From positions 45,830-109,829 of the forward strand of contig JBHHUC010000001.1 in NCBI GenBank assembly GCA_046861395.1: DNA of 64,000 nt, written 5' to 3'. This DNA comes from Fidelibacterota bacterium. Its GTDB lineage: Bacteria; Fidelibacterota; Marinisomatia; Marinisomatales; JABMOV01. Within the stretch, counting starts at the first letter, position 1. Each line of letters starts with the position of its first letter. Under the pieces are notes generated by a model, which saw nothing but the letters and a program-made list of their open reading frames with translations, was not told the origin of the DNA and made no database searches. The position numbers and the translations under genes were made by a program. Shown here in pieces: positions 17,401 through 59,214 of the stretch.

Positions 17401-20400
17401 GCGGTTACTTCCTGGATGTATCCTACTCTACCGATGGTACGACCTTCAACTATCTGACATCGGTGCCCATCCATGATTTCTACGAGTACGTGGAGGTCAT
17501 CCTGCCAGAAGTTGCGGATCAGCAAATTGCATTCACCTTTGCACCGGACAGCGGAGGCTCCTATGCCTACCTGAATTTCGACGAAGTAACTGTCTCTGCC
17601 GCACCACCAGTGGGAACCATCATGGGTACCGTCACGAATCCCGGCGGCGCACCGATTGAAGGCGTAAATGTTGGAACGCCCTTCGGAGTCACTGTGACGG
17701 ATGTTGCCGGTGACTATACTCTGAACTTTCAACCGGTAGGCCTGACGGAATTATGGTTTGATTTGCCCGGCTATCATCCAGCCTATTTCAATGTGGTGGT
17801 GGCAGACAGTGACACTACGGTTCAGGACCTGATCATGGTCCCAGACTCGGCGACCCAATCCACCATGTATTACACCGGATTTGAAACAGGCGAAGACACG
17901 GGGCAAACCTTTGCCTGGAGCGGGACCCACGCCTTTACGGTTATGGATACTTTCATTACCGGCGTGGACACAATCCTGCCGTCTTCCGGCGACTACATGC
18001 TGGTCTTCCCCGATTCCGGCGAAGCCTATGATAATAACGATTATGCCTACTGGCTGGGCAATGAATTCATTGACCTTACCGCCCTCATGGGCGGCGGTTT
18101 CCGCTTCCACTATTCGGCTTACATATCGACAGAAAGTGGTTGGGATTATGTCTATCCGGTTATGGCCCTGAGTGACGGAAATCTATACTGGATGGACGAA
18201 GACGGCATGAGCGGTGACGCCGGCGGCTGGTTCGATTATGAGGTGGACCTGTCCTGGGCCATGGCCATGGGCGCAGAATGGGCTGTTCCCGGCTTTGTCT
18301 TTGAAGCCGACGGCTCCGTGATTGGCGGCTTCGGTGCGGCCTTTGATGATGTCGAATTGTTATACGACAGCTTCTTCCTGGCGCCACCTATGGAGGTGAT
18401 GGCAGGAAGCTTTGGCTCCGATGTTCCGCTTTCCTGGAACACGCCCGGCCCGACGGGATCCGTCCAATATCATCTGACCCAGACGGATCGGAGCAACTTC
18501 ACATTGTTGTCCGGAGATGAAGACGGTACCTATGCCAGGGGTAAAGGTCCCCTGCCCAAGGAACACCTGGACGTGACCTACAATTACAGCAACCCCAACA
18601 ATGTTGGGCGCGATCTAGCCGGATACAAAGTGTACCGGAAGGAATGGCCCGTGGGCGAACCCGTCCTGCTGGCAACGGTAACTGAAAACATGTACACCGA
18701 TACGGATGTCATAGAAGGAACATATTACAATTATGCCGTTTCCGCCCTCTACGATGAAGGCGAAAGCTGGCCCATGCCGTCTAATGATGTCCACGTTGGT
18801 GCCGTGACGCAGTTACCAGCCATTGGATTCAGTGAGGACTTTGAAGGTCTGGCCGGCGGAATCCCGGCTGACTGGCAAGCCTTCACGACAAATCCACTGG
18901 GTATTTCCTGGGCCACAGGTGATTCGGCAGCAGCGGATACATCCGGCGCCTTCGGCTATGGAACACCGGCCGGCGGCGATTCTACCGACTTCGCCTTTGT
19001 CACCGACGGACGCGGCGGTGACTTTACCTTTGACACCTGGTTATTGTCACCTTTCCTGGATGCCAGTGATGCCTATTCCGCCCTGGTATCGTTCTCAGGT
19101 TATGAGCAGGGCTGGGGCAATTTTCCAGGCAACAGCACCGTCGCACAATTACTGGTCCGTTCGAATATGGGGCCGTGGTTTGTGGTTACAGACTTCTCCT
19201 ATGACCACTATGATGGATTTGTTGACTATGCCAACGACATCCAGATGGTGGCGGCCGGACAGGAGTACGTACAATTTGCTGTCTTCTATCATCACGAAGG
19301 GGGTATGAACTCAGGCGGTGGTAATGGTATAGCAGTTGACAATCTCTCCGTCTTTAATTTTGCCGGACCCACCAATCTGGTGGCAACGCCGGGAACCAAT
19401 GTGGTTGATCTGGAATGGTTGGAACCGTTACGGACACTGGAAAACCTGCCGGAAACACGGGAACTTTCCGCTGAAAAAGCGACACTTCCGTCCGGAACCG
19501 TTTCCAGCTCCGAGCGCGAAACATGCTTCAATCATATGTCAGCCCTGGCCTACTTCTGGTCCTTCACCGACTCTCTGAGCGGACCGTCCTCCATTTTTGC
19601 CTTCCCCGAAGGCCCCATGGAATTGACGGCAGCTCAGTATGGTGTTTACTTCCCGCCAGACGCCCCGATTGTGGGCTCACCGGTTGAAATGGCAGTCCTT
19701 GTCGCCAATGCCGACTCTACCGGTGCAACAATAGACACAATCTACAGTGGCATAGAAACACTGACGGCCGAAGCTTATGCCAATACATATGAAGTTGATC
19801 TGACCGGCTTGGTCTGGGAAAGCACAGGAAACAACTTCATCAAGGTGCATTTCCGTCCCATGACATGGGCCGATAGCATTGGTGGCGGTGGGGTGAATCC
19901 GGCCTACACACCGGCTCCGCTCAGCGATGACGGCTTATCACCCAGCGGCCTCAGCGGAACTGACAGTGCAGGCGTGTTCTATCCCTCTGACTACGATTTC
20001 GATCTGGCCATTTGTGGAACACCGACCCCGCCGGCCCTGTCCTTCAATATTTACAAAGACGGCATGGTGGTGGAAGAATACTTTGAAGACCTCTTCTGGA
20101 GTGATTTCGATGTATCACCTGCCATTGAATCCTGCTACTACGTTGCAGGTGTTGTGCCGCTGTTCCTGGCTTCCGATGCCGGTGATATGATCTTTGTTGA
20201 AACGGAACGGACCAACGAAGTATGTGCCACGCCGATTAACACCCCGCCAACCGACTTTACCCTATTGGCACCGGTGGATGGTGATACGCTCTTCCTGACC
20301 CCGGATAACATCGGCATGTCCACCATGTTTGCCTGGACGCCGTCACTGGATCCGGATGGGGAAGAAATCTGGTACACCGTTGAATGGAGCCTGGACAACA

Positions 20401-20900
20401 TCGGCGTATTCTACGACCTGGATACCACCGGCGTAGCCGCATTTGTTCTCAATGCCGACATGTATGACGACATTGAAACGTATGGCGTCACGGGATTGGA
20501 TATCACCTGGACCGTGTGGGCCGGTGATGGAATTGATGATGTTGAAGCAACAAACGGACCACGGACCTTCTACGTGGATGCCACTGCCCTGTTAGGCGTC
20601 GGCGATGAAGCGGCCATTCCAGAAAGCTTCGCGTTACATCAGAATTATCCCAATCCGTTTAACCCGATTACTACGATTGAGTATGATGTTCCTGAAATCA
20701 CAAGAGTTCAGATCGTCATCTATAACGTAATGGGACAACGTATTCGCACGTTGGTGAACAGCGAAATCCAGCCCGGCTATCATCGAGTTCTATGGAACGG
20801 AACCAATGATTTTGGTATGCCGGTTGCTTCAGGAATGTATTTCTATCAAATCAAAGCCGATAACTTCAATCAGGTTAAAAAGCTTATTTTGATGAAATAA
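14445..20900 (+). CDS. Giant secreted multidomain surface protein/adhesin (repeats, lamin-tail, Ig/ASH-like, cleaved-adhesin-like, carboxypeptidase-regulatory-like, FN3, FlgD/T9SS-type C-terminal domain)
   Basis: 2151 aa; signal peptide; LFFSEYVEGSGNNKALEVYNPT (lamin tail); FFEDFD..LPMEGWTILDNNGD; AGYKVYR..YTDTDV..YNYAVSALY (FN3); LHQNYPNPFNP...YNVMGQRIRTL...SGMYFY...KKLILMK. Confidence 0.85.
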   Translation: MRRTVMIVLSLAFLWSSFSLAADKSRDPKNKDQQGAHEGVVKGPDLSIPKDYKDNKGGIKSWSIEDYLIVTPKDKHNALLQRTNKKTRSYHPVSKIKPGPESLQKKDKRTAEISTWGIKEYIENTPESKNTAIINRQKSPSITRGEAPQYRDGVKSISDYSTDELLNITPSKTKREAITHAKTFVVGGSRSHNNTTISLTVDAWASEASWNLYDSTAGAYYYTANQTFASGYETQTVVLDLLPGTYSIDVWDSYGDGGVAGTVTDVNGAVLVSWLDSDYSSFGQFGFEVFPRMFDVNLSLTVDTWASEASWNLYDSTAGAYYYTANQTFTSGGETQNVTVSLAGGVYSVDVWDSYGDGGIAGTVTDANGNVLVTWLDGDYADFGQFGFSIGLFNTTIALTVDTWASEASWNLYDSTSGTYYYTTNQTFTTGGETQTIVFPLPAGHYSVDVWDSYGDGGIAGTVTDVNGNVLVTWLDGDYADFGQFGFEVLVPTNAPDLFFSEYVEGSGNNKALEVYNPTNDTLNLDNYLVYTNYNGNSWTGIYTFPAGFLLAPGDVFVAASADADPEILQAADSAYAYGDGAFITSFNGDDVRGLARIDGTDTTFIDLIGFYDINADTSEDPGSGWDVAGTANATSNHTLIRKQDVIWGNTNWTASAGTDSANSEWLVFPQDYSANLGGHPDDPCWGNEVNLTVTSVSWGSEINFYLTNDLGDTLISCFGCMSSYSTFTETFCLADGFYTFWGADDYGDSWGTGAGFVFTDADGNVLAAGDGPTSGDGTNWVSWTFGVGATPPAFAANMYFDMGGQAVGAGATTQSLYVTNPGGSDLTVSAVEVSGDPFSSTTTSFTVPGGATYPVDVSFDPATPDDFEGYMVFTSDAETSPDTVWLFGFGVDGVFFEDFDPPTGSYTDLPMEGWTILDNNGDADSIPQRYKTWYHDDYGLDGSGNMVAYMGYSNGYYADETLITPMISVSELSVVGFWMYNNYDRGYFLDVSYSTDGTTFNYLTSVPIHDFYEYVEVILPEVADQQIAFTFAPDSGGSYAYLNFDEVTVSAAPPVGTIMGTVTNPGGAPIEGVNVGTPFGVTVTDVAGDYTLNFQPVGLTELWFDLPGYHPAYFNVVVADSDTTVQDLIMVPDSATQSTMYYTGFETGEDTGQTFAWSGTHAFTVMDTFITGVDTILPSSGDYMLVFPDSGEAYDNNDYAYWLGNEFIDLTALMGGGFRFHYSAYISTESGWDYVYPVMALSDGNLYWMDEDGMSGDAGGWFDYEVDLSWAMAMGAEWAVPGFVFEADGSVIGGFGAAFDDVELLYDSFFLAPPMEVMAGSFGSDVPLSWNTPGPTGSVQYHLTQTDRSNFTLLSGDEDGTYARGKGPLPKEHLDVTYNYSNPNNVGRDLAGYKVYRKEWPVGEPVLLATVTENMYTDTDVIEGTYYNYAVSALYDEGESWPMPSNDVHVGAVTQLPAIGFSEDFEGLAGGIPADWQAFTTNPLGISWATGDSAAADTSGAFGYGTPAGGDSTDFAFVTDGRGGDFTFDTWLLSPFLDASDAYSALVSFSGYEQGWGNFPGNSTVAQLLVRSNMGPWFVVTDFSYDHYDGFVDYANDIQMVAAGQEYVQFAVFYHHEGGMNSGGGNGIAVDNLSVFNFAGPTNLVATPGTNVVDLEWLEPLRTLENLPETRELSAEKATLPSGTVSSSERETCFNHMSALAYFWSFTDSLSGPSSIFAFPEGPMELTAAQYGVYFPPDAPIVGSPVEMAVLVANADSTGATIDTIYSGIETLTAEAYANTYEVDLTGLVWESTGNNFIKVHFRPMTWADSIGGGGVNPAYTPAPLSDDGLSPSGLSGTDSAGVFYPSDYDFDLAICGTPTPPALSFNIYKDGMVVEEYFEDLFWSDFDVSPAIESCYYVAGVVPLFLASDAGDMIFVETERTNEVCATPINTPPTDFTLLAPVDGDTLFLTPDNIGMSTMFAWTPSLDPDGEEIWYTVEWSLDNIGVFYDLDTTGVAAFVLNADMYDDIETYGVTGLDITWTVWAGDGIDDVEATNGPRTFYVDATALLGVGDEAAIPESFALHQNYPNPFNPITTIEYDVPEITRVQIVIYNVMGQRIRTLVNSEIQPGYHRVLWNGTNDFGMPVASGMYFYQIKADNFNQVKKLILMK
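15021..15911 (+). repeat. Three tandem ~300-bp (99-101 aa) intragenic domain repeats
   Basis: CTTACAGTTGAT at 15039, 15342, 15639; 60-bp identical blocks at 15545-15604 and 15842-15901; protein unit LTVDxWASEASWNLYDS...YSxDVWDSYGDGG...FGQFGF. Confidence 0.95.
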
Positions 20901-47274: not shown

Positions 47275-47856
47275 ATGGCTAAAACACAAAAAATCATTGA
47301 AGCCGCCATCACCGTTTTTTCCCGGGACGGACTTGAAAAAGGCAAGATTGCCGACATTGCCGTTGAGGCCGGAATCGGAAAAGGTACAATATATGAGTAC
47401 TTTTCCAGTAAAGAGGATATCTTTGCCGCTATCGAAACCCATATGGTTGATCATCTTGTGACATCGGTTTTCACGGCGGCACAACAGGCCGGATCGGCTG
47501 AAGAAAAACTGAAAACCATCTTCGATTTAAGCGTCAAAGGAATGTTACATCTTGGCGATGCCCTGTTAATTGTTACTGAAATCCTGACGCGCAATGCCCG
47601 CGGACACATATTCTCTGATCGTCAGTCACCCATGAGTGAAATGTATACCCGCTATCGTCAGGCGGTAGAAACCATATTGCAGGAAGGAATGGAATCCGGG
47701 GAATTTCGGACCTTGAATCCGGCCGGGTCCGCCGCTTTGTTTATGGCCTTTATCGATGGAATTGTCTGGCAATATGTTTTCATGCCCGACAAAGACCTGT
47801 TTAATCGCATGCTCCGGGAAAGCCTAGAATCCTACTTGAGAGGAATAAGAAAATGA
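47275..47856 (+). CDS. TetR/AcrR family transcriptional regulator
   Basis: IADIAVEAGIGKGTIYEYFSSKEDIF HTH; ILQEGMESGEFR. Confidence 0.95.
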   Translation: MAKTQKIIEAAITVFSRDGLEKGKIADIAVEAGIGKGTIYEYFSSKEDIFAAIETHMVDHLVTSVFTAAQQAGSAEEKLKTIFDLSVKGMLHLGDALLIVTEILTRNARGHIFSDRQSPMSEMYTRYRQAVETILQEGMESGEFRTLNPAGSAALFMAFIDGIVWQYVFMPDKDLFNRMLRESLESYLRGIRK

Positions 47857-48593
47857 AATATCAAGTCCTGCCCCTCCTGTTCTGTACCACTCTGGCGTGG
47901 TCCCAGGATGCACAAAGCATTATTGACCGGATGACAGCGACCCTTACACAGGCCACCAGCCGTGCCCGTATGACGCAAACCGTGGAGACGACATCGGGAA
48001 AAACGCGAACATTGGAATTTGAAATGTTTTCCGCCGATTCCGGATCCAGTGTCCTCATTCGCTATATAAAACCCAGTAGCGTAAAAGGCCAAAGTTTTCT
48101 CATGCTGAACGATGCCAATGATATCTGGACCTACTTTCCCCGTACACGGCGAGTGCGTAAACTGGCATCTTCCGCCAAGAATCAAAAAGTACAGGGCAGC
48201 GATTTTTCCTATAGTGATTTTTCCTCTTCGGATACCTGGCAGGAGGATTATATATCTACCTTGGACGGAAGCGTCCGCCTGAAGGACGAAGCGTGCTGGA
48301 AGCTCACCGCCACCGAGACGGAAAAAAACGACTCCGACTACCCCCGGGTGGTGCTGTTTATCCGAAAATCAGACTATTCTCCGCTGCAGATGGATTTTTA
48401 TAATGAAAACAATCAACACGAAAAAACATTGACGTTTGAAAACATTACGAACATTGAAGGTGTCCCGACAGCGATGAGGATGATAATGGAAAATGTATTG
48501 GAGGGCTCAAAAACGGTCATGGAAATCAAGGAAATGACCTATGCATGGACACCGCCTAAGGGCTTTTTCAGTGAAAGGAACCTGCAGCAATGA
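47853..48593 (+). CDS. LolA-like periplasmic lipid/lipoprotein-sorting protein
   Basis: Signal peptide; P..VKGQSFL, DIWTYFPRTRRVRKL, GSDFSYSD, FFSERNL. Confidence 0.85.
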   Translation: MKYQVLPLLFCTTLAWSQDAQSIIDRMTATLTQATSRARMTQTVETTSGKTRTLEFEMFSADSGSSVLIRYIKPSSVKGQSFLMLNDANDIWTYFPRTRRVRKLASSAKNQKVQGSDFSYSDFSSSDTWQEDYISTLDGSVRLKDEACWKLTATETEKNDSDYPRVVLFIRKSDYSPLQMDFYNENNQHEKTLTFENITNIEGVPTAMRMIMENVLEGSKTVMEIKEMTYAWTPPKGFFSERNLQQ

Positions 48594-49780
48594 AAGGTGG
48601 AATGTTTTTAACCTGTCTCCTGGGGTTACTCATGGGACAGGTGGACTGGTTCGGCTACCTGGAAAGCGAATTCGACCGCTTTGCCCTCAATGATAAAACC
48701 TATCATTTCGGCTATCATAAATTACGGCTGGACATGGAAACCCGCCCGGCGGAAACCGTTCTGGTGGCTGCCAACCTCAATCTCCATCAGTATGTAGGAC
48801 AAACACACTGGAATTTCCTGGATTTCATTCCACCACGTTACTGGAACATTATTTTATTTGCCCCTGGAAATGACAGCGCCATGAGCATTAATCCGGAAAT
48901 CCCCTATGATTACCGGGATACATTGTATCTTGACAATGCTTATCTTCGTGCGGCCTTTCCGGCCGTGGATTTAATTGTAGGAAAACAGCCGCTGTCCTTG
49001 GGCACGGGTTATGCCTGGAATCCTGTGGATATTTTCAACAAGAAAGATCCCGTGGATCCTACCTATGAGCAGACCGGAATCCAGGCCTTGCGGTTCGATG
49101 TCCCCCTGACCAGTCGCGGTGGATTGACGCTGGTGGTGACGCCGGCAGCAACCTGGCAGGAAGCCACCCGGTATGTTCAGGTCAAGGCTGGACTGGCGAG
49201 TTTTGATATCACCCTGAACGCAGCGAAATATATGAGCTTGTACCGCTACTGGGATTATGTCACTTATTCGGGAAGATTGCCGACGAAAACAGAATATACA
49301 GCCTATGGTGGAACCTTCGTGGGACAGGTATTGGGCGTCGGAATTTGGGGTGAAACCTGGCAAAAAAAACATACAGTTGTATCTGGAAAAACGTTCCGGG
49401 AAACCATTCTCGGTTTTGATTATACCTTTGAAAACGGGTTTATGGTTCTGTCAGAATTTCTTTTCAATGAACAGGGCGCAGCCACGAACAATCTGTCACT
49501 GAATGATTATTTCGCCTATTTTTCGGGGGAGACCCACAGCCTGATGCAGCACTACCAATTCCTATATGCATCCTATCCTGTCAGTGATTTCGTCCGCGCA
49601 GGTTTCCTGTCCATCATAAACTATGACGATATCAGCGCCATGATCAGCCCGCAAGTGGATTGGGATATTTTCGAAAACGGCACCCTCTCGATCTGGTATA
49701 CCTTCCCCTATGGCAACAAAGAGACAGAATTCGGATACCAGGAAGACGGTTGGCGGATTCGCCTGCGGAGCTATTTCTAA
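48590..49780 (+). CDS. Putative outer-membrane beta-barrel protein
   Basis: Signal peptide; LDNAYL..VGKQPLSLGTGYAWNPVDIFN; C-terminal RLRSYF. Confidence 0.7.
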   Translation: MKGGMFLTCLLGLLMGQVDWFGYLESEFDRFALNDKTYHFGYHKLRLDMETRPAETVLVAANLNLHQYVGQTHWNFLDFIPPRYWNIILFAPGNDSAMSINPEIPYDYRDTLYLDNAYLRAAFPAVDLIVGKQPLSLGTGYAWNPVDIFNKKDPVDPTYEQTGIQALRFDVPLTSRGGLTLVVTPAATWQEATRYVQVKAGLASFDITLNAAKYMSLYRYWDYVTYSGRLPTKTEYTAYGGTFVGQVLGVGIWGETWQKKHTVVSGKTFRETILGFDYTFENGFMVLSEFLFNEQGAATNNLSLNDYFAYFSGETHSLMQHYQFLYASYPVSDFVRAGFLSIINYDDISAMISPQVDWDIFENGTLSIWYTFPYGNKETEFGYQEDGWRIRLRSYF

Positions 49781-49781
49781 T

Positions 49782-50900
49782 ATGTCAGTAGTTTTTATCC
49801 TGGGAGGAAGTGGCAATACCGGCCGGCGTATCGCAAAATTGTTGCTGGAGTATACCGACGCCAGGATTATCCTGGGTGCTCGGAATGAACTACGCTTGAA
49901 GGAAACCGCTGAAGAACTCCATGCTCACACACGGGTATCTTGGCACACCGTGGATGCCAGTCGGCCCGGGGAACTAAGTAAGTACCTGGAGCCAGTGGAT
50001 CTCCTGGTAGTAGCCAGTCCCCTCAGCGGGAACTTCGGTGAACTGGCGCAGGAGGCCATGAGGGCGGAGTGTGATGTACTGGACACCATCTACTCGTCGC
50101 GGAAATTGGCGCAATTGACAGAACTCGCTGGGGACTTGGAAGCTGCCGGACGGTGTTTCATTACGGATGCGGGTTTTCACCCCGGACTGCCCGCTGCCCT
50201 GGTGCGGTATGCCGCGGGGAAAATGGACACCCTCAGTCGAGCGGATGTCTATAGCGTTATCCGGGATGACTGGGCTCACCGCCAGGTCGCATCATCGACA
50301 CGGCGCGAATTTGTTGAAGAACTCCTTTCCATGGATATGACGGTTTTCCAGGATGGTACCTGGCGAAAGGCAGGAATGACATCCACGCGATACTACCGCA
50401 AGGAGTTCTTTGCATCCGTCCCTGGGACATTCTTATGCGCTCCTATGATGTTCGAGGAAATGAGAACGCTGCCCCATGACATCCCGGGGCTGGCAGACAC
50501 CGGCTTTTACATTGCCGGATTCCACTGGTACGTGGATTATGTGGTGATGCCCCTGGTGTTACTCGGATTGAAAACCCTGCCTTCATCTTGCCATCCTTTT
50601 CTGGCTTCCTGGTTTTTCCGCAGCCTGTGCCGGGTTAGTAAACCACCCTTTTGCACTGCGCTGAAGCTGGTGGCTGAAGGTTTCAAAAATGGAGCACCAT
50701 ACCGTTTTTCTCTGGAGCTATCCCATGAAGATGGTTACTGGTTTACCGCGACTCCAGTCACGTCATGTATCAAACAATACCTGGACGGATCGCTAAAAAA
50801 ACCCGGATTGAATTTCATGGGCCGGGTCGTTGATCCGGATCGCACATTAAGGGACCTTGGTTCCTGGGGAATCTCCAGCCAAGAAAACGATTTAACCTAA
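49782..50900 (+). CDS. Saccharopine dehydrogenase-like NAD(P)-dependent oxidoreductase
   Basis: Start MSVVFILGGSGNTG (Rossmann), LGARN, DAGFHPGLP. Confidence 0.8.
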   Translation: MSVVFILGGSGNTGRRIAKLLLEYTDARIILGARNELRLKETAEELHAHTRVSWHTVDASRPGELSKYLEPVDLLVVASPLSGNFGELAQEAMRAECDVLDTIYSSRKLAQLTELAGDLEAAGRCFITDAGFHPGLPAALVRYAAGKMDTLSRADVYSVIRDDWAHRQVASSTRREFVEELLSMDMTVFQDGTWRKAGMTSTRYYRKEFFASVPGTFLCAPMMFEEMRTLPHDIPGLADTGFYIAGFHWYVDYVVMPLVLLGLKTLPSSCHPFLASWFFRSLCRVSKPPFCTALKLVAEGFKNGAPYRFSLELSHEDGYWFTATPVTSCIKQYLDGSLKKPGLNFMGRVVDPDRTLRDLGSWGISSQENDLT

Positions 50901-50911
50901 AAGGATTTCTC

Positions 50912-53671
50912 ATGCGTCAGAAACTGCTTGTTGGATTGTCACATTTCATTACCCGTTATCCCGGACGGATGCTGGGTATCTTGCTCTTAATAACTGCCGT
51001 TTTCATGGTGATGATGACCCAGTTGGAATTTTCCACCTCCATGACGAACCTCATGCCCCAGGACGATCCCAAGGTTGTGGAATTCGACCGGATCATGGAG
51101 GAATACAACGGCGCCGCGTCGCTACTGATCGTAGCCGAGGGTGACCCGGAGCACCTGCTGACCTTCGCCGATGAAGTTTCACCGCGGATTGAAGCCATCA
51201 AGGACTATGTGAAAAAAGTGGATTATAAGCAGCCACGGGAACTCATCGAAAACCACGCCCTGATGCTGATGAAATCACAGGATCTGGAAAACATTGGTGA
51301 TGTGTTCACGGACCCCAACCTCACTCGTTTTTTAGCAAACCTAAATGACAGTTTTGAAAAAGAATATATCCAGAGTGACGAAAAAATTTCCGGCCAGGAA
51401 CAGGAACAGAGTGTTATTCGCTTCATGGACGGGATTCAGACGTTCGTAACCACAACAACAGACTTCCTTCAGGATCAGGGCACTGGGGCAGGGGCCGAAA
51501 CCGCTGCCGACCGCGCCGTGGATGCCGTCCTGCTGGGAGACCTGTATTACCGCAGCTGGGACCGGGAAATGCTCATCATGCAAATTATACCTGACTTCAA
51601 CTGGATGGACGTGGAAAAAAGCGTTTTTATTACCGACACCGTGGAAACCATCATCAAGGATGTCGCGGCGCAGGAAGGTATCTCGGCTGGACTGACGGGG
51701 GTCATACCCCTTTCACGCGATGAAATGCGAGCCATGGAAAACGATTCCTTTGTCATCACCACCGTGGCCGTCATTGCCATTTTCATCCTGTTTATGATTG
51801 CCTTCCGGATGTTTACCAGCCCCTTCTTGGCCATTCTCACATTGATTCTGGGTGTCATCTGGGCCATGGGCCTGGCCTGGGTCATCGTAGGCTCCTTGAA
51901 TATTATGACTTCCATGATGTCGGTTATCCTGGTGGGACTCGGTATCGATTTTTCCGTGCACTTGATTGCTGGCTATTCCGAACGGAGGGCGGCAGGAGAG
52001 AGCATAGAGTCCTCCCTCACTGACACCCTGACCAAGAGCGGAATGGGTATCATTACCGGCGGTTTCACTACAGCAGCTGCCTTCTTTACCATGGTGATTT
52101 CCCGAACGGAAGGCATGCGGGAATTCGGACTGGTGCTGGGCGAAGGCATTGTAATCATCATGGTGGCAACGTTGCTCATTCTCCCCACACTCCTGGTCTT
52201 GAAGGATCGCTTATGGGGTAAGCTCCGTAAAGTACCTTCCCGGCAGCGCGATATTTCCTACCGTTTTCTGGGAGCCAGCGCCACCGCTTTGGCCAAGAAT
52301 AAATATATTGGCTTGGCGGCGCTGATTGTTGTCACCCTGTTTCTGGGTTACCGCGGTTTCCATCTCACCATGGATTACAATTACCTTAACATGGAGCCGG
52401 CGGGCTTGGAGAGCGTGTTTTTACAGGATCGCATCATCGACAAGATGGATATTTCCGCCGATTATTGCTATATCACGGTGAAGGATCTCAATGAGGCGGA
52501 AGCGGTTACCGAAAAAGCGAAGGCTATGTCCACTTCCGGAATGGTCCAGTCGATTGTGGATTTCCTGCCGCCCCCGGAAGAACAACAGCGCCGGACCGAG
52601 AAGATTCACGCTTTGAGGACAAAGCTTGATGGAGTGGATTTGAAAACGGCCCTGACTCCGGCAGACAGGGAGTTGCTGCTGGCTGAAATTGAACGACTGG
52701 AGATGAATGTCATGGAAATTCAGGACATGGCTGTCATTGGGGGTCAGGATAAAATTTACCTGAAAACGGGTCTGCTGGTCGGCGTGGTTCCCGAGGAAGA
52801 AGATGCCTCTATCATGGCGCTTCAAGAAGAACTGGTCACCAAACAACCGTCCCTGGAGCGAGGCCTGCTCACTGAATTGCGTGAAACCGTGGCGGGACTT
52901 TCGACCCCCGGCTGGCAGAAGATGGATTCCTTTCAACAGGCGTTTGCCGCCGAGTTTAAGGCTGTCGCCCGGCGCATGACCAACACAGAACCCATCACCA
53001 TAGCCACCCTTCCTCCTTCCATCCGAGCCCAGTTTGTAGGGAAGTCCGGCGACAGTTTCCTGGTAACTGTATTTCCCAAGGATAATGTCTGGGATATTGA
53101 TTTCTTGGAACGATTCACCCGGGAACTTGAAGACGTCAGCCCGCGGGTGACGGGAATTCCACCGGTGTTCAAAAGACTCATGGAATATTTTGCAGCCGAC
53201 GGGAAGCAGGCCACCTATCTGGCTTTAGTGGTGATCTTTATCATCCTGGTGCTGGATTTTCACAGCTGGCGTAAGTCGGCCCTGGCCATGGCACCCCTTA
53301 TCATCGGCGTTTTCTGGATGATCGGATTGATGCAGCTGACCGGCTTGCAATTAACGATGGTGAATATCATGGCCATACCCCTGATCATTGGTATCGGGAT
53401 CGATGATGGCGTCCATGTCATGCACCGCTACAATATCGAAGGCCGGGATAAGCATTTTATTGTGTTCTCTACAACTGGCCGGGCCATCCTGTTGACATCC
53501 TTGACTACGATGCTGGGTTTTGGCTCCCTGATCTTTGCCACCTACCGTGGGCTGGGGTCCATGGGTAGTGCACTTTTCATCGGTGTGGGCACCTGTTTTC
53601 TGGCAACGGTTCTGGTTATACCGGCCCTCATGGGAGTATATCATGCCTGGCATACGAAAAAGTCTACCTGA
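50912..53671 (+). CDS. MMPL/RND (HpnN-like) lipid transporter
   Basis: Two RND halves: VGLGIDFSVHL..GGFTTAAAF and IGIGIDDGVHV..TSLTTMLGFGSL. Confidence 0.92.
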   Translation: MRQKLLVGLSHFITRYPGRMLGILLLITAVFMVMMTQLEFSTSMTNLMPQDDPKVVEFDRIMEEYNGAASLLIVAEGDPEHLLTFADEVSPRIEAIKDYVKKVDYKQPRELIENHALMLMKSQDLENIGDVFTDPNLTRFLANLNDSFEKEYIQSDEKISGQEQEQSVIRFMDGIQTFVTTTTDFLQDQGTGAGAETAADRAVDAVLLGDLYYRSWDREMLIMQIIPDFNWMDVEKSVFITDTVETIIKDVAAQEGISAGLTGVIPLSRDEMRAMENDSFVITTVAVIAIFILFMIAFRMFTSPFLAILTLILGVIWAMGLAWVIVGSLNIMTSMMSVILVGLGIDFSVHLIAGYSERRAAGESIESSLTDTLTKSGMGIITGGFTTAAAFFTMVISRTEGMREFGLVLGEGIVIIMVATLLILPTLLVLKDRLWGKLRKVPSRQRDISYRFLGASATALAKNKYIGLAALIVVTLFLGYRGFHLTMDYNYLNMEPAGLESVFLQDRIIDKMDISADYCYITVKDLNEAEAVTEKAKAMSTSGMVQSIVDFLPPPEEQQRRTEKIHALRTKLDGVDLKTALTPADRELLLAEIERLEMNVMEIQDMAVIGGQDKIYLKTGLLVGVVPEEEDASIMALQEELVTKQPSLERGLLTELRETVAGLSTPGWQKMDSFQQAFAAEFKAVARRMTNTEPITIATLPPSIRAQFVGKSGDSFLVTVFPKDNVWDIDFLERFTRELEDVSPRVTGIPPVFKRLMEYFAADGKQATYLALVVIFIILVLDFHSWRKSALAMAPLIIGVFWMIGLMQLTGLQLTMVNIMAIPLIIGIGIDDGVHVMHRYNIEGRDKHFIVFSTTGRAILLTSLTTMLGFGSLIFATYRGLGSMGSALFIGVGTCFLATVLVIPALMGVYHAWHTKKST

Positions 53672-53780
53672 GGAAAATATACCGAATAACACCGGAAAGA
53701 CGGTTTGGATCAGCTGTGTCAGGGGGAATAAAGTGAGAACTTTGCTTTGCTTCCGGCGATAAGCCGGCCCAATTTTGTTT

Positions 53781-54182
53781 ATGTTTCAACGGTTATTATT
53801 TCTGTTTATTGCCATCCCGCTCATGGAAATCCTGATTCTTATCCGCCTGGGCGAACTCATGGGGTTCTGGGCGACGGTCATTCTGGTTATAGGTACTGGT
53901 ATCATCGGGGCGGGATTAGCCCGGCTCTACGGCTGGACCCTGTGGGTAGAAATCCAGCATGAATTACAAATGGGTCGGATGCCCACCGATAAAATGATGG
54001 ACGGATTGTTGATCCTCATTGGCGGCATTGTTCTGCTTACACCCGGGCTCCTGACCGATATCGCCGGCTTTTTATTGCTTATTCCGATCACCCGAAAAAT
54101 GGCCAAACGTTGGTTGCAAAAAATCTTTGCCAACCAAATTGCCGTATATCCAGAGGATGAAAACGAAATATTTCGCGGATAA
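53781..54182 (+). CDS. fxsA: FxsA family membrane protein
   Basis: FIAIPLMEI..GG..LLTPGLLTDIAGFLLLIP..R. Confidence 0.9.
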   Translation: MFQRLLFLFIAIPLMEILILIRLGELMGFWATVILVIGTGIIGAGLARLYGWTLWVEIQHELQMGRMPTDKMMDGLLILIGGIVLLTPGLLTDIAGFLLLIPITRKMAKRWLQKIFANQIAVYPEDENEIFRG

Positions 54183-54256: not shown

Positions 54257-55558
54257 ATGATTTCTTCCGACGATAAAAGCGCTGTTATCCAAACTTTTTC
54301 CCGGCACGTCTCCAGCGGAAAAGCAGCCTTCTTCAAAAAATACGGAATGGATTTTGTCATGGGAAACCGGGACGGCAATTGGCTAGTGGACAAGGACGGG
54401 AATAAACGTCTATTTAATCTTCACTGTAATGGTGGTGTATTTAACCTCGGCCACCGCAATCCTCAAATTATTGCCACCTTGAAAGCGGCTTTGGAAGAGC
54501 TGGATATCGGCAACCATCATCTTATGAGCGAAGAAAGGGCTCGGCTGGCCAGGCAATTAAGCGATCTCATGCCCGGGGATTTATCCTGCACCGTATTTGG
54601 TGTTAGCGGCGGAGAAGCCGTTGATCTGGCTCTGAAGGTGGCTCGCTCACACACCCGCCGCACCAGAATAATTTCCGCCCGGGGCGGCTATCACGGCCAC
54701 ACCGGCCTTGCTCTGGCCGCCGGTGACGAAAAATATCGTCGGCCGTTCGGTCCCATGGCACCGGGCTTTCTGCAGGTTCCCTTCGGTGATGCGGAAGCCC
54801 TGAACGATGCCCTGGATGACAATACGGCCGCCGTGATCCTGGAAACCATTCCAGCGACCCTGGGGATGGTTATACCCACCAAGGAGTATATGCAGGAGGT
54901 GCGTCGTCTCTGCGATCACTGGGGCGCCCTGCTCATTTTGGATGAAGTCCAGAGCGGCCTGGGTCGGACGGGAAAACTATGGGCCTTCGAACATTATGAT
55001 ATTATTCCGGATATTGTTGTGCTGGGAAAAGGGCTGTCCGGCGGTCTTTATCCCATCACTGCCACCGTATTACGCCAGCCGCTGGAACAGGTTTTTCATG
55101 ACGATCCATTCATTCATATTTCCACCTTCGGGGGTGCCGAAATCGGATGTCGTGTGGCCCGTAAAGTCCTGGATATCACCGCTGATCCGGACTTTTTATC
55201 GGAAGTAAACGATATGGCAGACCGGACAGGGAAGCATCTGGAATTATTGATCACAAAACATCGTCCTTTTTTCAGCGGTGTGCGGCAACTGGGGCTCATG
55301 ATGGGTCTGGAATTACAGGATGAAATTGCCGGGCCGGTTCTCACCAAAGCCGCCTATGACAAGGACCTTCTCATGGTGTACGCCAATAATGATCAGTCCG
55401 TGTGTCAATTTCTACCACCGCTAACCATGAAGAAGGAAGATCTGCCTTTCATAATTGATCGACTAGAGAATGCCTTGACCCAGGCCCGCCGGTTACGGAA
55501 ACTCTATCAAGCCAAGACAATGGTAACGTCTCTGTTCCGTAAAAAAAAGAATACATGA
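54257..55558 (+). CDS. Class III PLP-dependent aminotransferase-fold enzyme
   Basis: FNLGHRNP, SGGEAVD, GGYHGHT, LDEVQSGLGRTG, VLGKGLSGG (PLP Lys), STFGG. Confidence 0.92.
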   Translation: MISSDDKSAVIQTFSRHVSSGKAAFFKKYGMDFVMGNRDGNWLVDKDGNKRLFNLHCNGGVFNLGHRNPQIIATLKAALEELDIGNHHLMSEERARLARQLSDLMPGDLSCTVFGVSGGEAVDLALKVARSHTRRTRIISARGGYHGHTGLALAAGDEKYRRPFGPMAPGFLQVPFGDAEALNDALDDNTAAVILETIPATLGMVIPTKEYMQEVRRLCDHWGALLILDEVQSGLGRTGKLWAFEHYDIIPDIVVLGKGLSGGLYPITATVLRQPLEQVFHDDPFIHISTFGGAEIGCRVARKVLDITADPDFLSEVNDMADRTGKHLELLITKHRPFFSGVRQLGLMMGLELQDEIAGPVLTKAAYDKDLLMVYANNDQSVCQFLPPLTMKKEDLPFIIDRLENALTQARRLRKLYQAKTMVTSLFRKKKNT

Positions 55559-56475
55559 TGAATCCCGACTTTTCCTTTTTAACATCCTTTGAAGAAGGCC
55601 TGGTTCCTTGGGCCTTGGACAGCTCGGCTGCACCGGTATCAGTATTGGGATATGGTGAAATATCCACGGTTTTTCGTTTGACACAGGATGAGAATTGGGC
55701 CTTTAAGCGAATGCCGCTATTTGATACCAGGGCCGCCGCCGAAATATACTTGGAACATTATACGGCCTATTGTTCATATCTAACGGAGGCCGGATTAAAT
55801 CTCCCTGAAAGTCATGGCCATATAGTGGATCTTCCGGGCCGACCCATTGTACTGTATCTGGTCCAAAGAAGCCTGCCATCGGACCGGTTTTGTCACACCC
55901 TTATCAAGACGGCTGCGGCCGATGAAAACCGGGAAATGATTGCCGCAATCGTATCGGCATTGGAAGGGGTGTGGACTTTTAATGATAAGCTTCAACCAGA
56001 CCTAGAAATCGCCATCGACGGTCAACTGTCGAATTGGGCTTGGTTGCCACAGGAGAATGGTGTGAAAAAATTACTCTATATTGACACATCAACACCGTTA
56101 TACCGGAAAAATGGCAAGGAACAACTGGACCCGGAACTGTTCCTGAAAAGCGCCCCGTCCTTTTTGCGCTGGCTGATTCGATGGCAGTTCCTGGATGAGG
56201 TCATGGAGCGCTACTATCTGCGACGGGAAGTTTACACGGACCTGGCGGCGAACTGTTTCAAGGAACAGGCGGAGGAATGGATTCAGCCCATCGTGGAAAT
56301 GGCAAATCAACATCTTGATTCGCCCCTGACATTTGCTGATATTGACAAATATTATAAAAATGACAAAGTAATTTGGGCCCTATTTCTAGCCCTGCGGAAA
56401 ATGGATCGCTGGTTACAGCGTCGGATCTTCCGCCATCGATATGAATATATTCTTCCGGAAATCGAACACCGCTGA
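55555..56475 (+). CDS. Kinase-fold protein (DUF6206-like)
   Basis: LGYGEISTV (Gly loop), AFKR (VAIK-like Lys), IDGQLSNW (D-x4-N catalytic loop), YIDTS (DFG-like). Confidence 0.6.
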   Translation: MMNPDFSFLTSFEEGLVPWALDSSAAPVSVLGYGEISTVFRLTQDENWAFKRMPLFDTRAAAEIYLEHYTAYCSYLTEAGLNLPESHGHIVDLPGRPIVLYLVQRSLPSDRFCHTLIKTAAADENREMIAAIVSALEGVWTFNDKLQPDLEIAIDGQLSNWAWLPQENGVKKLLYIDTSTPLYRKNGKEQLDPELFLKSAPSFLRWLIRWQFLDEVMERYYLRREVYTDLAANCFKEQAEEWIQPIVEMANQHLDSPLTFADIDKYYKNDKVIWALFLALRKMDRWLQRRIFRHRYEYILPEIEHR

Positions 56476-57779
56476 TGTGTGATACTTTCGTAGCCCTGCC
56501 TCCGCAGACTGCGGATGGATCCACCATCCTGGGCAAAAACAGTGACCGGGAACCGAATGAAGCGCAACTTCTGACCTGGATTCCTCCCCGGACATATTCG
56601 GCAGATGAAACGGTTACCTGTACCTATTTAACGATACCTCAGGTTAAGGAGACGCGCGGTATTTTGTTGAGTCGTCCATTTTGGCTGTGGGGCGCGGAAA
56701 TGGGGACCAATGATGCCGGGGTCGCTATCGGAAATGAAGCCGTATTTACCCGGGAACCACAAGCCAAGAAAAAAAAGCTGCTGGGCATGGATATGCTCCG
56801 GTTGGCACTGGAACGATCGGGAACCGCGGAACAGGCGCTGGAAACCATCATTGCTCTCCTTCACGATTATGGTCAGGGCGGACCCTGTGGTTTCGAAGAC
56901 ACGTTGTATTATCACAACAGTTTTCTCATTGCCGACCCCGAAACCGCCTGGGTACTCGAAACCGCCGGTGAATTCTGGGCGGCAAAACAGGTGAAAGAGT
57001 CATATGCTATTAGCAACGGTTTGACCATCGGAACAAACTTCGATCGTTCCCATCCGGACTTAATCAGCCACGCCCGGAAGAAAGGCTGGTTGAAAAAGGG
57101 TCAGACCTTTGATTTCGCCGGTTGTTATTCCGATTGGTTCTACACGACATTTTCCGGTAGTCGTCGACGACGATCCTGCTCTTTGAGCCATCTGCAGAAG
57201 CCATTGTCCGTCGGCGCGGCCATGATCGCCTTACAGGACCACAATGATGATCAGTATTCTCCATCAAGGCATTTATTTATGCATAAAGTGTGTGCTCACG
57301 CCGCCTATCCAATCACGCGTCATGCCGTCCAGAGTACCGGATCGATGGTGGCTCATCTGTCGCAGGATCCCGTGGTTTGGGTAACGGGCACGTCGGCTCC
57401 CTGCACATCACTATATAAACCCATCTGGCCTTTAGATCCTTATTCTCCAGATTCGGCAGACAAAGGTGAAGGAACCTATTCCGCAACGTCTCTTTGGTGG
57501 CAGCATGAACGCCTGCACCGGGCGATATTAGAAGATTATATTCCCCGCCTGAATCGTATAAAGGCGGAACGTGATCAATGGCAGGAAACCTGGATCCGGG
57601 AAGCCAGAAGTCTGCCTTCTCATCAAAGGCGATTCTTCACCCAACAGACATTTACCACGGCTACCGAACAGGAATCGGAATGGCTGGATAAAATTCGGCA
57701 GACACCGCCGCAAAATAAACCAAACCGGTTCTATCGATCATACTGGAAAAAACAAAACGAAAAGGCCAATCTGCCATAA
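56475..57779 (+). CDS. Ntn-hydrolase, C69/secernin-like amidase
   Basis: N-terminal M-C-D-T nucleophile, GKNSDREPNE, WGAEMGTN..GNEAV, YHNSFLIAD, AISNGL. Confidence 0.88.
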   Translation: MCDTFVALPPQTADGSTILGKNSDREPNEAQLLTWIPPRTYSADETVTCTYLTIPQVKETRGILLSRPFWLWGAEMGTNDAGVAIGNEAVFTREPQAKKKKLLGMDMLRLALERSGTAEQALETIIALLHDYGQGGPCGFEDTLYYHNSFLIADPETAWVLETAGEFWAAKQVKESYAISNGLTIGTNFDRSHPDLISHARKKGWLKKGQTFDFAGCYSDWFYTTFSGSRRRRSCSLSHLQKPLSVGAAMIALQDHNDDQYSPSRHLFMHKVCAHAAYPITRHAVQSTGSMVAHLSQDPVVWVTGTSAPCTSLYKPIWPLDPYSPDSADKGEGTYSATSLWWQHERLHRAILEDYIPRLNRIKAERDQWQETWIREARSLPSHQRRFFTQQTFTTATEQESEWLDKIRQTPPQNKPNRFYRSYWKKQNEKANLP

Positions 57780-57798
57780 AGTTGAGGGACAATACATC

Positions 57799-59214
57799 AT
57801 GGAAGATATACACGTAAACATTGAAAAAACCTGGGAACGCCAACAGCTGCTTAAAGCCGAAGTCAATCGTTCCACCCCACAACAACGGATTGAAAAACTG
57901 CGTCGGTTACACCAGTGGATTCTAGATAACCGGCAGCGTATTCACGAAGCAGTTACGGCCGATTATTTTAAACCGCCGGAAGAGATCGATTTAACGGAAA
58001 TTTGGGTCAATACCACGGAATTGAAGAGCGTCATGCGTCATTTGAAGTCCTGGTTGCGTCCGAAACCTGTTCCCCGAACACTGGCAACGCTCACTGCAAA
58101 AGCCTGGGTGCAATATGAGCCCAAGGGGGTGGTTCTGATTATTTCCCCCTGGAATTATCCCATCAATTTATCTCTTGGGCCCCTGATTTCCGCCGTGGCG
58201 GCCGGGAATTGCGTTGTATTGAAACCATCCGAATTCACGCCGAACAGTTCGCATTTATTACGCACTATGTTGGATGAAGTATTTCCGAATGGAGAAGCAG
58301 TAGTTATTGAGGGTGATTACCGGGTAGCCGAAGCGCTGGAAGAAAAACCGTTCGATCATATATTCTTCACCGGCAGTCCCGCCGTGGGCAAAAAGGTAAT
58401 GGCGGCGGCAGCGCAACATTTAACATCAGTTACTCTTGAGTTGGGCGGCAAGTCTCCAACGATTATTGATCGTTCGGCTCGCCTGAAGGATACCGTTCGG
58501 AAAATTGTTTTCAGTAAATATCTCAACAACGCCCAGACGTGTATTGCGCCGGATTATATTCTGATACACGCTGATGTTGAAGCGGAATTTATTGCTTTCT
58601 TGAAAAAAGAAATAAGACGGGTTTATGGCAAGACGGCAGAAAAACAGAAACAGTCCACAAATTACGGTCGGCTGGTAAATAGAAACCATTTTTCCCGAAT
58701 ACACGATTTATTGGATCGCACGCAAGACGCCGGTGCAACCGTTATCATCGGCGGTGATTATGATGAGGAATCTTGCTGGTTTTCTCCCACGGTAATTAAA
58801 GATGTCCACTCCGATCATGCGGTCATGGAATCGGAAATTTTCGGACCTCTCCTGCCGCTGATCCGATATAATACACTAGACGAGGCATTGACAATAATCA
58901 ACGGCCGCCCCAAACCGCTGGCTCTGTATATTTTCAGCCAGGATAATCATGTCACCGATACCATTCTGCAGGAAACCAGTGCCGGCGGCACATGCATCAA
59001 TGATTGTATCATGCATTTTCTCCAGATGAACCTTCCCTTTGGTGGCGTGAATAACAGCGGAATCGGAAAGACCCATGGCATTTTCGGCCTGGAAGCCTTT
59101 TCCAACCGCCGGGCGATTCTGAAACAATCTCGCTGGAACCCCATTCTGCTTATTACACCACCCTATAACGGATTTAAACGAAGGTTAATCCGGATCATTA
59201 TAAAGTATATTTAA
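57799..59214 (+). CDS. Aldehyde dehydrogenase, ALDH3/CalB (fatty or aromatic aldehyde) type
   Basis: Start MEDIH; PWNYP, LKPSE, FTGS, LELGGKSP, QTCIAPDY, EIFGP, PKPLALY, PFGGV. Confidence 0.93.
   Translation: MEDIHVNIEKTWERQQLLKAEVNRSTPQQRIEKLRRLHQWILDNRQRIHEAVTADYFKPPEEIDLTEIWVNTTELKSVMRHLKSWLRPKPVPRTLATLTAKAWVQYEPKGVVLIISPWNYPINLSLGPLISAVAAGNCVVLKPSEFTPNSSHLLRTMLDEVFPNGEAVVIEGDYRVAEALEEKPFDHIFFTGSPAVGKKVMAAAAQHLTSVTLELGGKSPTIIDRSARLKDTVRKIVFSKYLNNAQTCIAPDYILIHADVEAEFIAFLKKEIRRVYGKTAEKQKQSTNYGRLVNRNHFSRIHDLLDRTQDAGATVIIGGDYDEESCWFSPTVIKDVHSDHAVMESEIFGPLLPLIRYNTLDEALTIINGRPKPLALYIFSQDNHVTDTILQETSAGGTCINDCIMHFLQMNLPFGGVNNSGIGKTHGIFGLEAFSNRRAILKQSRWNPILLITPPYNGFKRRLIRIIIKYI

Follow-up and report, generated by a model that had tools for sequence, protein, structure and literature searches.

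Gene organization at the locus

We analysed a stretch of 64,000 nucleotides (hereafter the window) from a Fidelibacterota bacterium (GenBank assembly GCA_046861395.1, contig JBHHUC010000001.1, positions 45,830 to 109,829 of the forward strand), in which four consecutive genes encode a class III pyridoxal phosphate (PLP) enzyme, a DUF6206 protein, a secernin-like C69 hydrolase of the N-terminal-cysteine nucleophile (Cys-Ntn) type and an ALDH3-type aldehyde dehydrogenase (ALDH) (Table 1). The PLP and DUF6206 genes share an ATGA overlap (55555-55558), the DUF6206 and C69 genes share a TGATG overlap at 56475, and a 19-bp gap (57780-57798) separates C69 from ALDH. These open reading frame (ORF) coordinates bear out a preliminary description of the stretch, made from its sequence, which had recognized four tightly coupled forward-strand genes and had read them as a pathway of amidase, kinase, PLP lyase and aldehyde dehydrogenase. 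Based on locus and genome counts and on the lack of a recurring fourth gene, we find that the core of this module is the PLP enzyme and DUF6206, usually with the C69 hydrolase. Promoter and terminator scans gave results at chance level.

Table 1. Genes of the module and of its surroundings in the window.
Feature	Position	Strand	Description
Class III PLP enzyme	54257-55558	+	433 aa; PF00202 E=2e-85, 287 bits; core gene; proposed amino-alcohol O-phosphate phospho-lyase
DUF6206	55555 (or 55558)-56475	+	PF19709 E=1.5e-27; core gene; proposed small-molecule (amino-alcohol) kinase
Secernin-like C69 Cys-Ntn hydrolase	56475-57779	+	PF03577 33.4 bits (cut-off 23); starts MCDTF; frequent third gene; proposed amidase
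ALDH3-type aldehyde dehydrogenase	57799 (ATG)-59214	+	PF00171; lineage-specific accessory, outside core
FxsA-family membrane protein	53775-54182	+	74 bp upstream; neighbour only in closest relatives (2/160 loci)
Operon of TetR, LolA-like, unannotated 396-aa ORF, saccharopine-dehydrogenase-like, MMPL (HpnN/BstA-like)	47275-53671	+	neighbour in this genome, outside module

Conservation of the module

Two sets of DUF6206 loci were compared: a near set comprising the best 80 of 271 loci from genomes, and a far set comprising the best 80 of 270 loci found in metagenomes with a distant clade, whose identity to the window sequence is about 27-37%. Loci with at least 3 kb on either side form a well-flanked subset (n=54 near, n=18 far). 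The PLP gene adjoins DUF6206 in 139 of the 160 loci and lies on its strand in 76/80 near and 63/80 far loci; within the well-flanked subset it accompanies 51 near and all 18 far loci. The C69 gene occurs with DUF6206 at 67/160 loci (43/80 near, 24/80 far; 28 and 7 when well flanked) and ALDH at 2/160 (2/80 near, 0/80 far; 2 and 0 when well flanked). The far set contains four different gene orders, and the coupling is therefore not simple inherited synteny.

We further surveyed 251 genomes of the phylum, 55 of which carry DUF6206. A PLP orthologue (E<=1e-100) is present in 52 of these 55 and in none of the 196 DUF6206-negative genomes, and a close C69 orthologue (E<1e-110) in 49/55 versus 7/196, six genomes with weaker matches only having been set aside. 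ALDH (E<=1e-90) is found in 12/55 module genomes versus 45/196 others. All these counts are descriptive and non-additive, because related genomes are not independent and some contigs were sampled twice by different routes. Among 267 same-strand neighbours, which fall into 169 clusters with at most 7 members, none recurs across lineages as a fourth conserved gene, and a Pfam scan of 97 neighbour proteins likewise found no family recurring across lineages. The co-conservation of four genes anticipated in the preliminary description thus holds for the PLP, kinase and Cys-Ntn genes and fails for ALDH, which leaves no conserved four-gene pathway.

The module is mostly single-copy per genome. The closest DUF6206 relatives are labelled Marinimicrobia/Fidelibacterota, and the module is also found in records labelled Desulfobacterales and other groups. 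The DUF6206 family comprises 776 clusters at 50% identity; no member was found in the plasmid collection, and no member of the PLP subfamily was found in viral contigs. An apparent PLP-DUF6206 fusion at one locus (L034) is probably an indel artefact and was discarded, since C69 is split on the same contig and a close relative (L029) is unfused.

DUF6206 is predicted to adopt a kinase fold

A model of DUF6206 computed from 58 sequences (predicted local distance difference test, pLDDT, 89; predicted template-modelling score, pTM, 0.88) returned at least 500 Foldseek matches at E<=1e-3, all of them kinases among the matches listed. The VIA structure search gave Z scores of 11.6-8.7 with root-mean-square deviations of 4.4-6.8, the matches including PRPK (11.6), amicoumacin kinase (11.1), APH(2'') (10.9), RIO (10.4) and the aminopropanol kinase 6ef6 (10.1); WaaP also ranks among the best fold matches. 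Using sequence and secondary structure, we placed in DUF6206 what we take to be the Gly-rich loop (G31-x-G33), the beta3 Lys (K50), the D-x4-N motif (D154-x4-N159) and the Mg-binding Asp (D176) of kinases. Among 124 representatives at 50% identity, G33, K50, D154 and D176 are each conserved in 123 and N159 in 122, which argues for an active enzyme. The model therefore points to a bilobal protein-kinase-like (PKL) fold with its catalytic residues intact, and the kinase fold that had been put forward for DUF6206, with a Foldseek comparison as its check, is upheld. Membership in Pfam APH was not found, PF19709 being the only family matched at E<=0.01, and a PDB sequence search with the DUF6206 profile gave no match.

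Throughout the family, two helices (201-211 and 270-290) have an amphipathic character with basic and aromatic residues, a weak hint at a membrane surface or a lipid substrate. A predicted complex of the PLP enzyme with DUF6206 scored 0.00 against a mark of 0.32, which is evidence neither way. We also note a DUF6206 clade (P0147, P0155, P0161, P0176, P0179, P0186, P0210 and others) with an N-terminal extension of 100-200 residues that has no Pfam match over cut-off.

The PLP enzyme has lost the gateway of 2-oxoglutarate transaminases

Databases label the PLP subfamily putrescine or acetylornithine aminotransferase. The best matches of the window enzyme are indeed PatA and ArgD (PDB E=2e-69), and the class III residues K258 (the Schiff-base Lys), D229, Y145 (aromatic stack) and T290 are present in 72/72 sequences. 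Nevertheless, the enzyme scores under the cut-off for each of the best 25 of 70 NCBIfam families, including PatA (283 vs 612) and ArgD (272 vs 410). Alignment with PatA reveals the replacements E243 to T201, R426 to Q384, K183 to H148, F91 to G59 and Q119 to H87. PMC4244111 and PMC8154272 describe E243 and R426 of PatA as an ion pair needed for 2-oxoglutarate. T201 and Q384 are invariant in 72/72 near and 43/43 far sequences, so that the Glu-Arg gateway of 2-oxoglutarate omega-transaminases (PatA, ArgD, OAT, GabT) is missing in all 115 aligned sequences. Loop 373-383, the site to which the Arg of pyruvate-using enzymes appears to map, likewise has no conserved Arg or Lys. These alignments set the PLP enzyme apart from an ordinary TRANSAMINASE, and T201 and Q384 at the positions of PatA E243 and R426 tell against the putrescine or ornithine transaminase that the preliminary description had named as an outcome contrary to its reading. 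The subfamily as a whole carries the fingerprint K22, H56-x-N58-G59, D83-x-G-N-H-H88, YHGH148, E196-x-x-P-A-T201, K258, H287, Q384. A single-sequence model of the enzyme reached a pLDDT of 34, and this reading of the active site rests on alignments.

Some of the replacements recur in known phospho-lyases. H148 lies at the position where ETNPPL has His, and a Thr at the gateway Glu position is also seen in the Arthrobacter phospholyase 5g4i (presumably A1RDF1). The preliminary description had placed the enzyme with the ETNPPL/PHYKPL class; trees of 83 sequences do not support this placement, grouping the PLP subfamily with canonical Glu/Arg transaminases (support 100), apart from PRK06148/AGXT2-like proteins. 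The latter stand in for the ETNPPL/PHYKPL clade in the tree, and a bridge protein matches 6tor at E=3e-111. In the alignment, ETNPPL and A1RDF1 carry an Arg in SRFL/TRYL and, ahead of PP, a K-x-K/R motif, and both features are missing from the window enzyme. The PLP enzyme thus falls outside the ETNPPL group, yet it may work like ETNPPL.

The sister clade (L271-L280) consists of canonical class III transaminases, which often occur in pairs, divergent or in tandem, with an SCP2 protein, alanine dehydrogenase and an amino-acid permease encoded next to them; the clade is possibly involved in fatty-amine catabolism. In a separate observation, a putrescine-aminotransferase-like domain is fused to an apparent aldehyde:ferredoxin oxidoreductase, identified by eye (L230, 1255-4128); ORFs of similar length occur in several genomes.

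Partner swaps of the PLP subfamily

Members of the PLP subfamily also occur with partners other than DUF6206. Four records of the plasmid collection carry such members. The PLP gene of Pseudomonas MPC6 shares 64% identity with a member linked to DUF6206 and precedes an APH kinase; this kinase is a match to the aminopropanol kinase 6ef6 of microcompartments (E=2e-50). G494 shows the same pairing with an APH kinase. The MPC6 and G494 members nest among DUF6206-linked ones (SH-aLRT 94.9). The preliminary view that the PLP enzyme acts downstream of an amino-alcohol-type kinase gains support from this pairing of the same subfamily with a 6ef6-like homologue. On rhizobial plasmids of Phyllobacterium and Mesorhizobium (L245, L246), the PLP member is preceded by DeoR, a peptide/opine ABC transporter and a type I phosphodiesterase; this cassette is a tractable system in cultured strains. 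A subfamily member precedes ALDH in Burkholderia, and in Thioclava an amidase and an APH kinase flank a more distantly related C69. What these swaps would most simply have in common is an amino-alcohol O-phosphate, made available by the phosphodiesterase or by a kinase from one or the other family.

Two further arrangements are recorded here as observations in their own right. PbfA (over cut-off) lies directly before an APH-family kinase at L213 (243-2844), though PbfA is described as kinase-independent. PlsC-type acyltransferases on the opposite strand adjoin the module or the PLP-APH pair at L126, L129, L130 and L296, with PF01553 confirmed at L126 and L296.

The C69 hydrolase and the secernins

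The C69 hydrolase bears Cys2 after the start Met and a KNSDR motif; MCDT and KNSDR are kept in 38 near sequences and 21 far matches. Comparison with a Secernin-3 cluster of the Atlas gives a template-modelling (TM) score of 0.82 and a feature score of 0.97. A PDB sequence search returned 0 matches at E<=1e-3, and hence none to the solved acid ceramidase or the N-acylethanolamine (NAE) amidase NAAA. The Cys-Ntn identity proposed for this protein therefore stands, through its N-terminal Cys and PF03577, whereas the likeness to acid ceramidase and NAAA does not, as the protein is secernin-like C69. According to PMC9140057, acid ceramidase and NAAA belong to C89 and secernins to C69, and the human secernin substrates 'remain elusive'.

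The ALDH and the upstream operon

The best PDB matches of the ALDH (6k0z, 1ad3, 4qgk) include class 3 and fatty-aldehyde dehydrogenases, and these nearest solved relatives confirm its ALDH3 type. By coordinates, ALDH directly follows C69 in 6/251 genomes, all of one order; in two of the six, C69 and the PLP-DUF6206 pair lie on separate contigs. Module genomes account for 11 of the 16 closest ALDHs. ALDH3 is a local, lineage-specific add-on.

The lipid-transport operon noted earlier beside the module is real in the window (TetR, LolA-like protein, outer-membrane protein, dehydrogenase, MMPL) and single-copy in the genome, but a conserved link to the module is not supported: it was not found upstream of the module in two same-family genomes examined (L235, L236), and MMPL occurs in 1/160 related loci. 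Elsewhere in the window, positions 14445-20900 hold a 2151-aa ORF.

Proposed mechanism and alternative explanations

From the gene coupling, the kinase fold and its residues, the gateway loss and the partner swaps we infer a three-gene catabolic module consisting of an amidase, an amino-alcohol kinase and a convergently evolved phospho-lyase, a reading to which we give an even chance. The C69 hydrolase would cleave an amide bond and free a beta-amino alcohol, and DUF6206, judging from its fold and catalytic residues, would phosphorylate the hydroxyl of this alcohol with ATP. The PLP enzyme would then form an external aldimine and eliminate phosphate (1,2-elimination), releasing ammonia, inorganic phosphate (Pi) and an aldehyde or ketone. 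This carbonyl product would be handled by a dehydrogenase of the host, ALDH3 having joined the operon in the lineage of the window. Ethanolamine- or aminopropanol-type compounds from N-acyl conjugates or lipids would be the first substrate candidates, and the lyase subfamily would have arisen next to ordinary transaminases, independently of ETNPPL/PHYKPL. In keeping with this proposal, EutB was searched for and not recovered in the genome of the window, which is 94% complete.

Several observations weigh against this proposal. The module has no conserved transporter or dehydrogenase, an odd feature if it serves a nutrient pathway, and the C69 gene is absent from 26/54 near and 11/18 far well-flanked loci. 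Protein kinases (PRPK/Bud32, RIO) and small-molecule kinases come out level at the top of the DUF6206 fold matches, and the fold therefore does not name the phosphate acceptor; moreover, DUF6206 and the APH kinase that replaces it have no profile similarity (hhalign probability 0.1). In a second phylum, 6/21 loci of the PLP subfamily are without a kinase within 1.5 kb. The subfamily itself has weakly supported monophyly (SH-aLRT 39; core 75). At the positions of H87, Q384 and L386 in the window enzyme, ETNPPL and A1RDF1 carry Arg, Lys and Lys/Arg, basic residues that we take to be phosphate ligands; only the QFK branch (7/43 far sequences and 4 plasmid members) keeps one of them as K386. That K22 and conserved His residues form the phosphate site instead is conjecture.

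The absence of these basic residues, together with the PatA/ArgD-type nature of the closest characterised relatives and the Glu/Arg pair kept by the sister clade (support 100), could be explained if the PLP enzyme were an atypical transaminase, a racemase or some other enzyme that eliminates nothing from its substrate, a carbonyl or amine that is either neutral or phosphorylated; the kinase would then work upstream or downstream of it in a route of biosynthesis or salvage that keeps the phospho-product. A mostly single-copy module with no conserved transporter would fit such a route. We consider it somewhat unlikely, given that both gateway residues are lost in all 115 aligned sequences, that loop 373-383 conserves no Arg or Lys, and that the pairing with a phosphodiesterase and an uptake ABC transporter suggests consumption of a phospho-amine. 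Peptide salvage, in which a C69 dipeptidase frees a hydroxylysine-like amino acid or amine that is then degraded in the manner of HYKK/PHYKPL, draws on the dipeptidase character of the C69 family, with which the Atlas cluster names agree, and on the M28 and S9 peptidases that adjoin the module in a few lineages. The hydrolase, however, scores 28.7 bits against the NCBIfam C69 dipeptidase cut-off of 250, and the PLP enzyme has no conserved Arg at the distal-carboxylate position (H148), making this route quite improbable. Still more doubtful, and very unlikely in our view, is that DUF6206 is a protein kinase regulating the PLP enzyme, or that the two mature the secernin-like N-terminal Cys into a carbonyl cofactor. 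PRPK/Bud32, RIO and WaaP among the top fold matches and the missing conserved transporter agree with such a role, as does the N-terminal glyoxylyl at Cys6 that 10.1101/2023.02.02.526866 reports for human SCRN3. Yet the PLP subfamily also occurs with an APH kinase or a phosphodiesterase and no C69 among the annotated or scanned neighbours, and the PLP-kinase pair often lacks an adjacent C69.

A lipid-specific version overlaps with the amino-alcohol phosphate module that we prefer and would fix its substrate: the hydrolase would be a ceramidase or NAE amidase and DUF6206 a long-chain-base kinase, the PLP enzyme would consume phosphoethanolamine derived from sphingosine-1-phosphate (S1P) lyase (SPL) or cleave the base phosphate, and ALDH3 would oxidise the fatty aldehyde. 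SPL cleaves a C-C bond and yields phosphoethanolamine, which a phospho-lyase would consume. SPL homologues of true S1P-lyase type (PF00282; 5eud E=6e-109) lie two genes downstream of the module in 2/160 loci, from two close relatives, and co-occur with the module in 15/55 module genomes versus 10/196 others and, in the second phylum, in 13/21 versus 20/280. Two module genomes of one family (L282, L283) have SPL together with ALDH, to which L283 adds a long-chain acyl-CoA ligase (FadD), and no kinase was recognised among the neighbours listed there. The amphipathic DUF6206 helices, a Gly in 115/115 sequences in place of the bulky PatA F91 (G59) and the SCP2 proteins beside the sister transaminases also favour a lipid. 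Against it, SPL was not found in the genome of the window or its family, and a single family, whose members are not independent, accounts for 13 of the 15 co-occurrences in this phylum. ALDH is not co-conserved, and the hydrolase is C69, not C89. The genome of the window also encodes two DAGK-family proteins, whose fold we take to be that of known sphingosine kinases. If a sphingoid 1-phosphate lost its phosphate through class III chemistry, a methyl ketone would result rather than a fatty aldehyde for ALDH3, and elimination from phosphoethanolamine would give acetaldehyde; neither product would need ALDH3. Neutral ceramidase was not found in the genome of the window, where the search controls gave no match either. 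In 4/15 loci examined, SPL homologues adjoin TauE sulfite exporters (L290, 2525-7792; also L281, L285, L292), and in L290 the homologue directly follows sulfoacetaldehyde acetyltransferase (Xsc, over cut-off). This points towards sulfonates, and these homologues may be sulfonolipid (capnine) lyases that release taurine and a fatty aldehyde. We hold the ceramide- or NAE-specific reading to be unlikely, and sphingolipid breakdown finds no support in the genome of the window. The same judgement applies to a sediment-bacterial route for sphingolipids or N-acyl amino alcohols built of non-eukaryotic parts, in which a secernin amidase, a membrane-associated PKL long-chain-base kinase and an independent phospho-lyase with a His/Lys phosphate site would act in turn.

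Significance and comparison with known systems

The proposal offers a testable function for DUF6206. If the PLP enzyme is a lyase, elimination chemistry would have arisen in this fold independently one more time, and with another kind of phosphate site. The module also places a close structural relative of human secernins in an operon with defined chemistry and would provide a lead on the secernin substrate; if the lipid or N-acyl-amino-alcohol route were true, the substrate class of the orphan human SCRN2/3 would be identified. As the module is present in about one fifth of the sampled genomes of the phylum, it may matter for the recycling of amino-alcohol nitrogen and phosphorus in sediments. 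In the literature searched, most subscription journals lying outside it, DUF6206 is named nowhere, and the kinase family, lyase subfamily and secernin link of the module were not found in print. Searches of the literature on aminopropanol kinase/phospho-lyase, secernins and bacterial sphingolipids found no paper on the module among those listed, and searches on phospho-lyases returned no structural study.

In HYKK and PHYKPL, a kinase is followed by a class III lyase. The module resembles this pair, ETNPPL (6tor) and the Arthrobacter enzyme 5g4i in combining a kinase with a class III PLP enzyme that has no Glu switch; it shares with ETNPPL the His at the distal-Arg position, and with 5g4i the Thr at the Glu position. 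It differs in that the window enzyme falls in a clade near PatA-like transaminases, without the K-x-K/R and the TRYL/SRFL Arg, that its kinase is DUF6206 and not Pfam APH, and that an amidase is attached. A phosphotransferase, an aminotransferase and an aldehyde dehydrogenase are also found together in the Rhodococcus/Mycobacterium microcompartment (RMM) locus, which PMC4207490 links to amino-2-propanol. A homologue of 6ef6, which itself matches the DUF6206 model, replaces DUF6206 beside some PLP members; the kinase family of the module is nevertheless another one, and no shell proteins are present among the module neighbours scanned.

PbfA offers a precedent for a class III lyase without the gateway: PMC8154272 describes it as an enzyme annotated as an aminotransferase, with gateway residues lost and 1,2-eliminating lyase activity. 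The window enzyme, however, scores 222 against the PbfA cut-off of 525 and belongs to another clade, and PbfA needs no kinase. PatA/YgjG and ArgD remain the best sequence matches and share the PLP-binding residues, but the gateway pair, K183, F91 and Q119 are replaced and the scores lie under the cut-offs. The likeness to SCRN1-3 (MEROPS C69) lies in the N-terminal Cys Ntn fold and the TM score to the Secernin-3 cluster, and the difference in the operon context of the bacterial gene. Eukaryotic sphingolipid breakdown (acid ceramidase C89, sphingosine kinase, S1P lyase, ALDH3A2) follows the same order of amidase, kinase, PLP cleavage and ALDH3, whereas the first three window genes are non-orthologous and S1P lyase has the PF00282 decarboxylase fold. 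Thus the logic of a kinase followed by a class III lyase is known, and the kinase family, the lyase subfamily and the link to secernins are the new parts.

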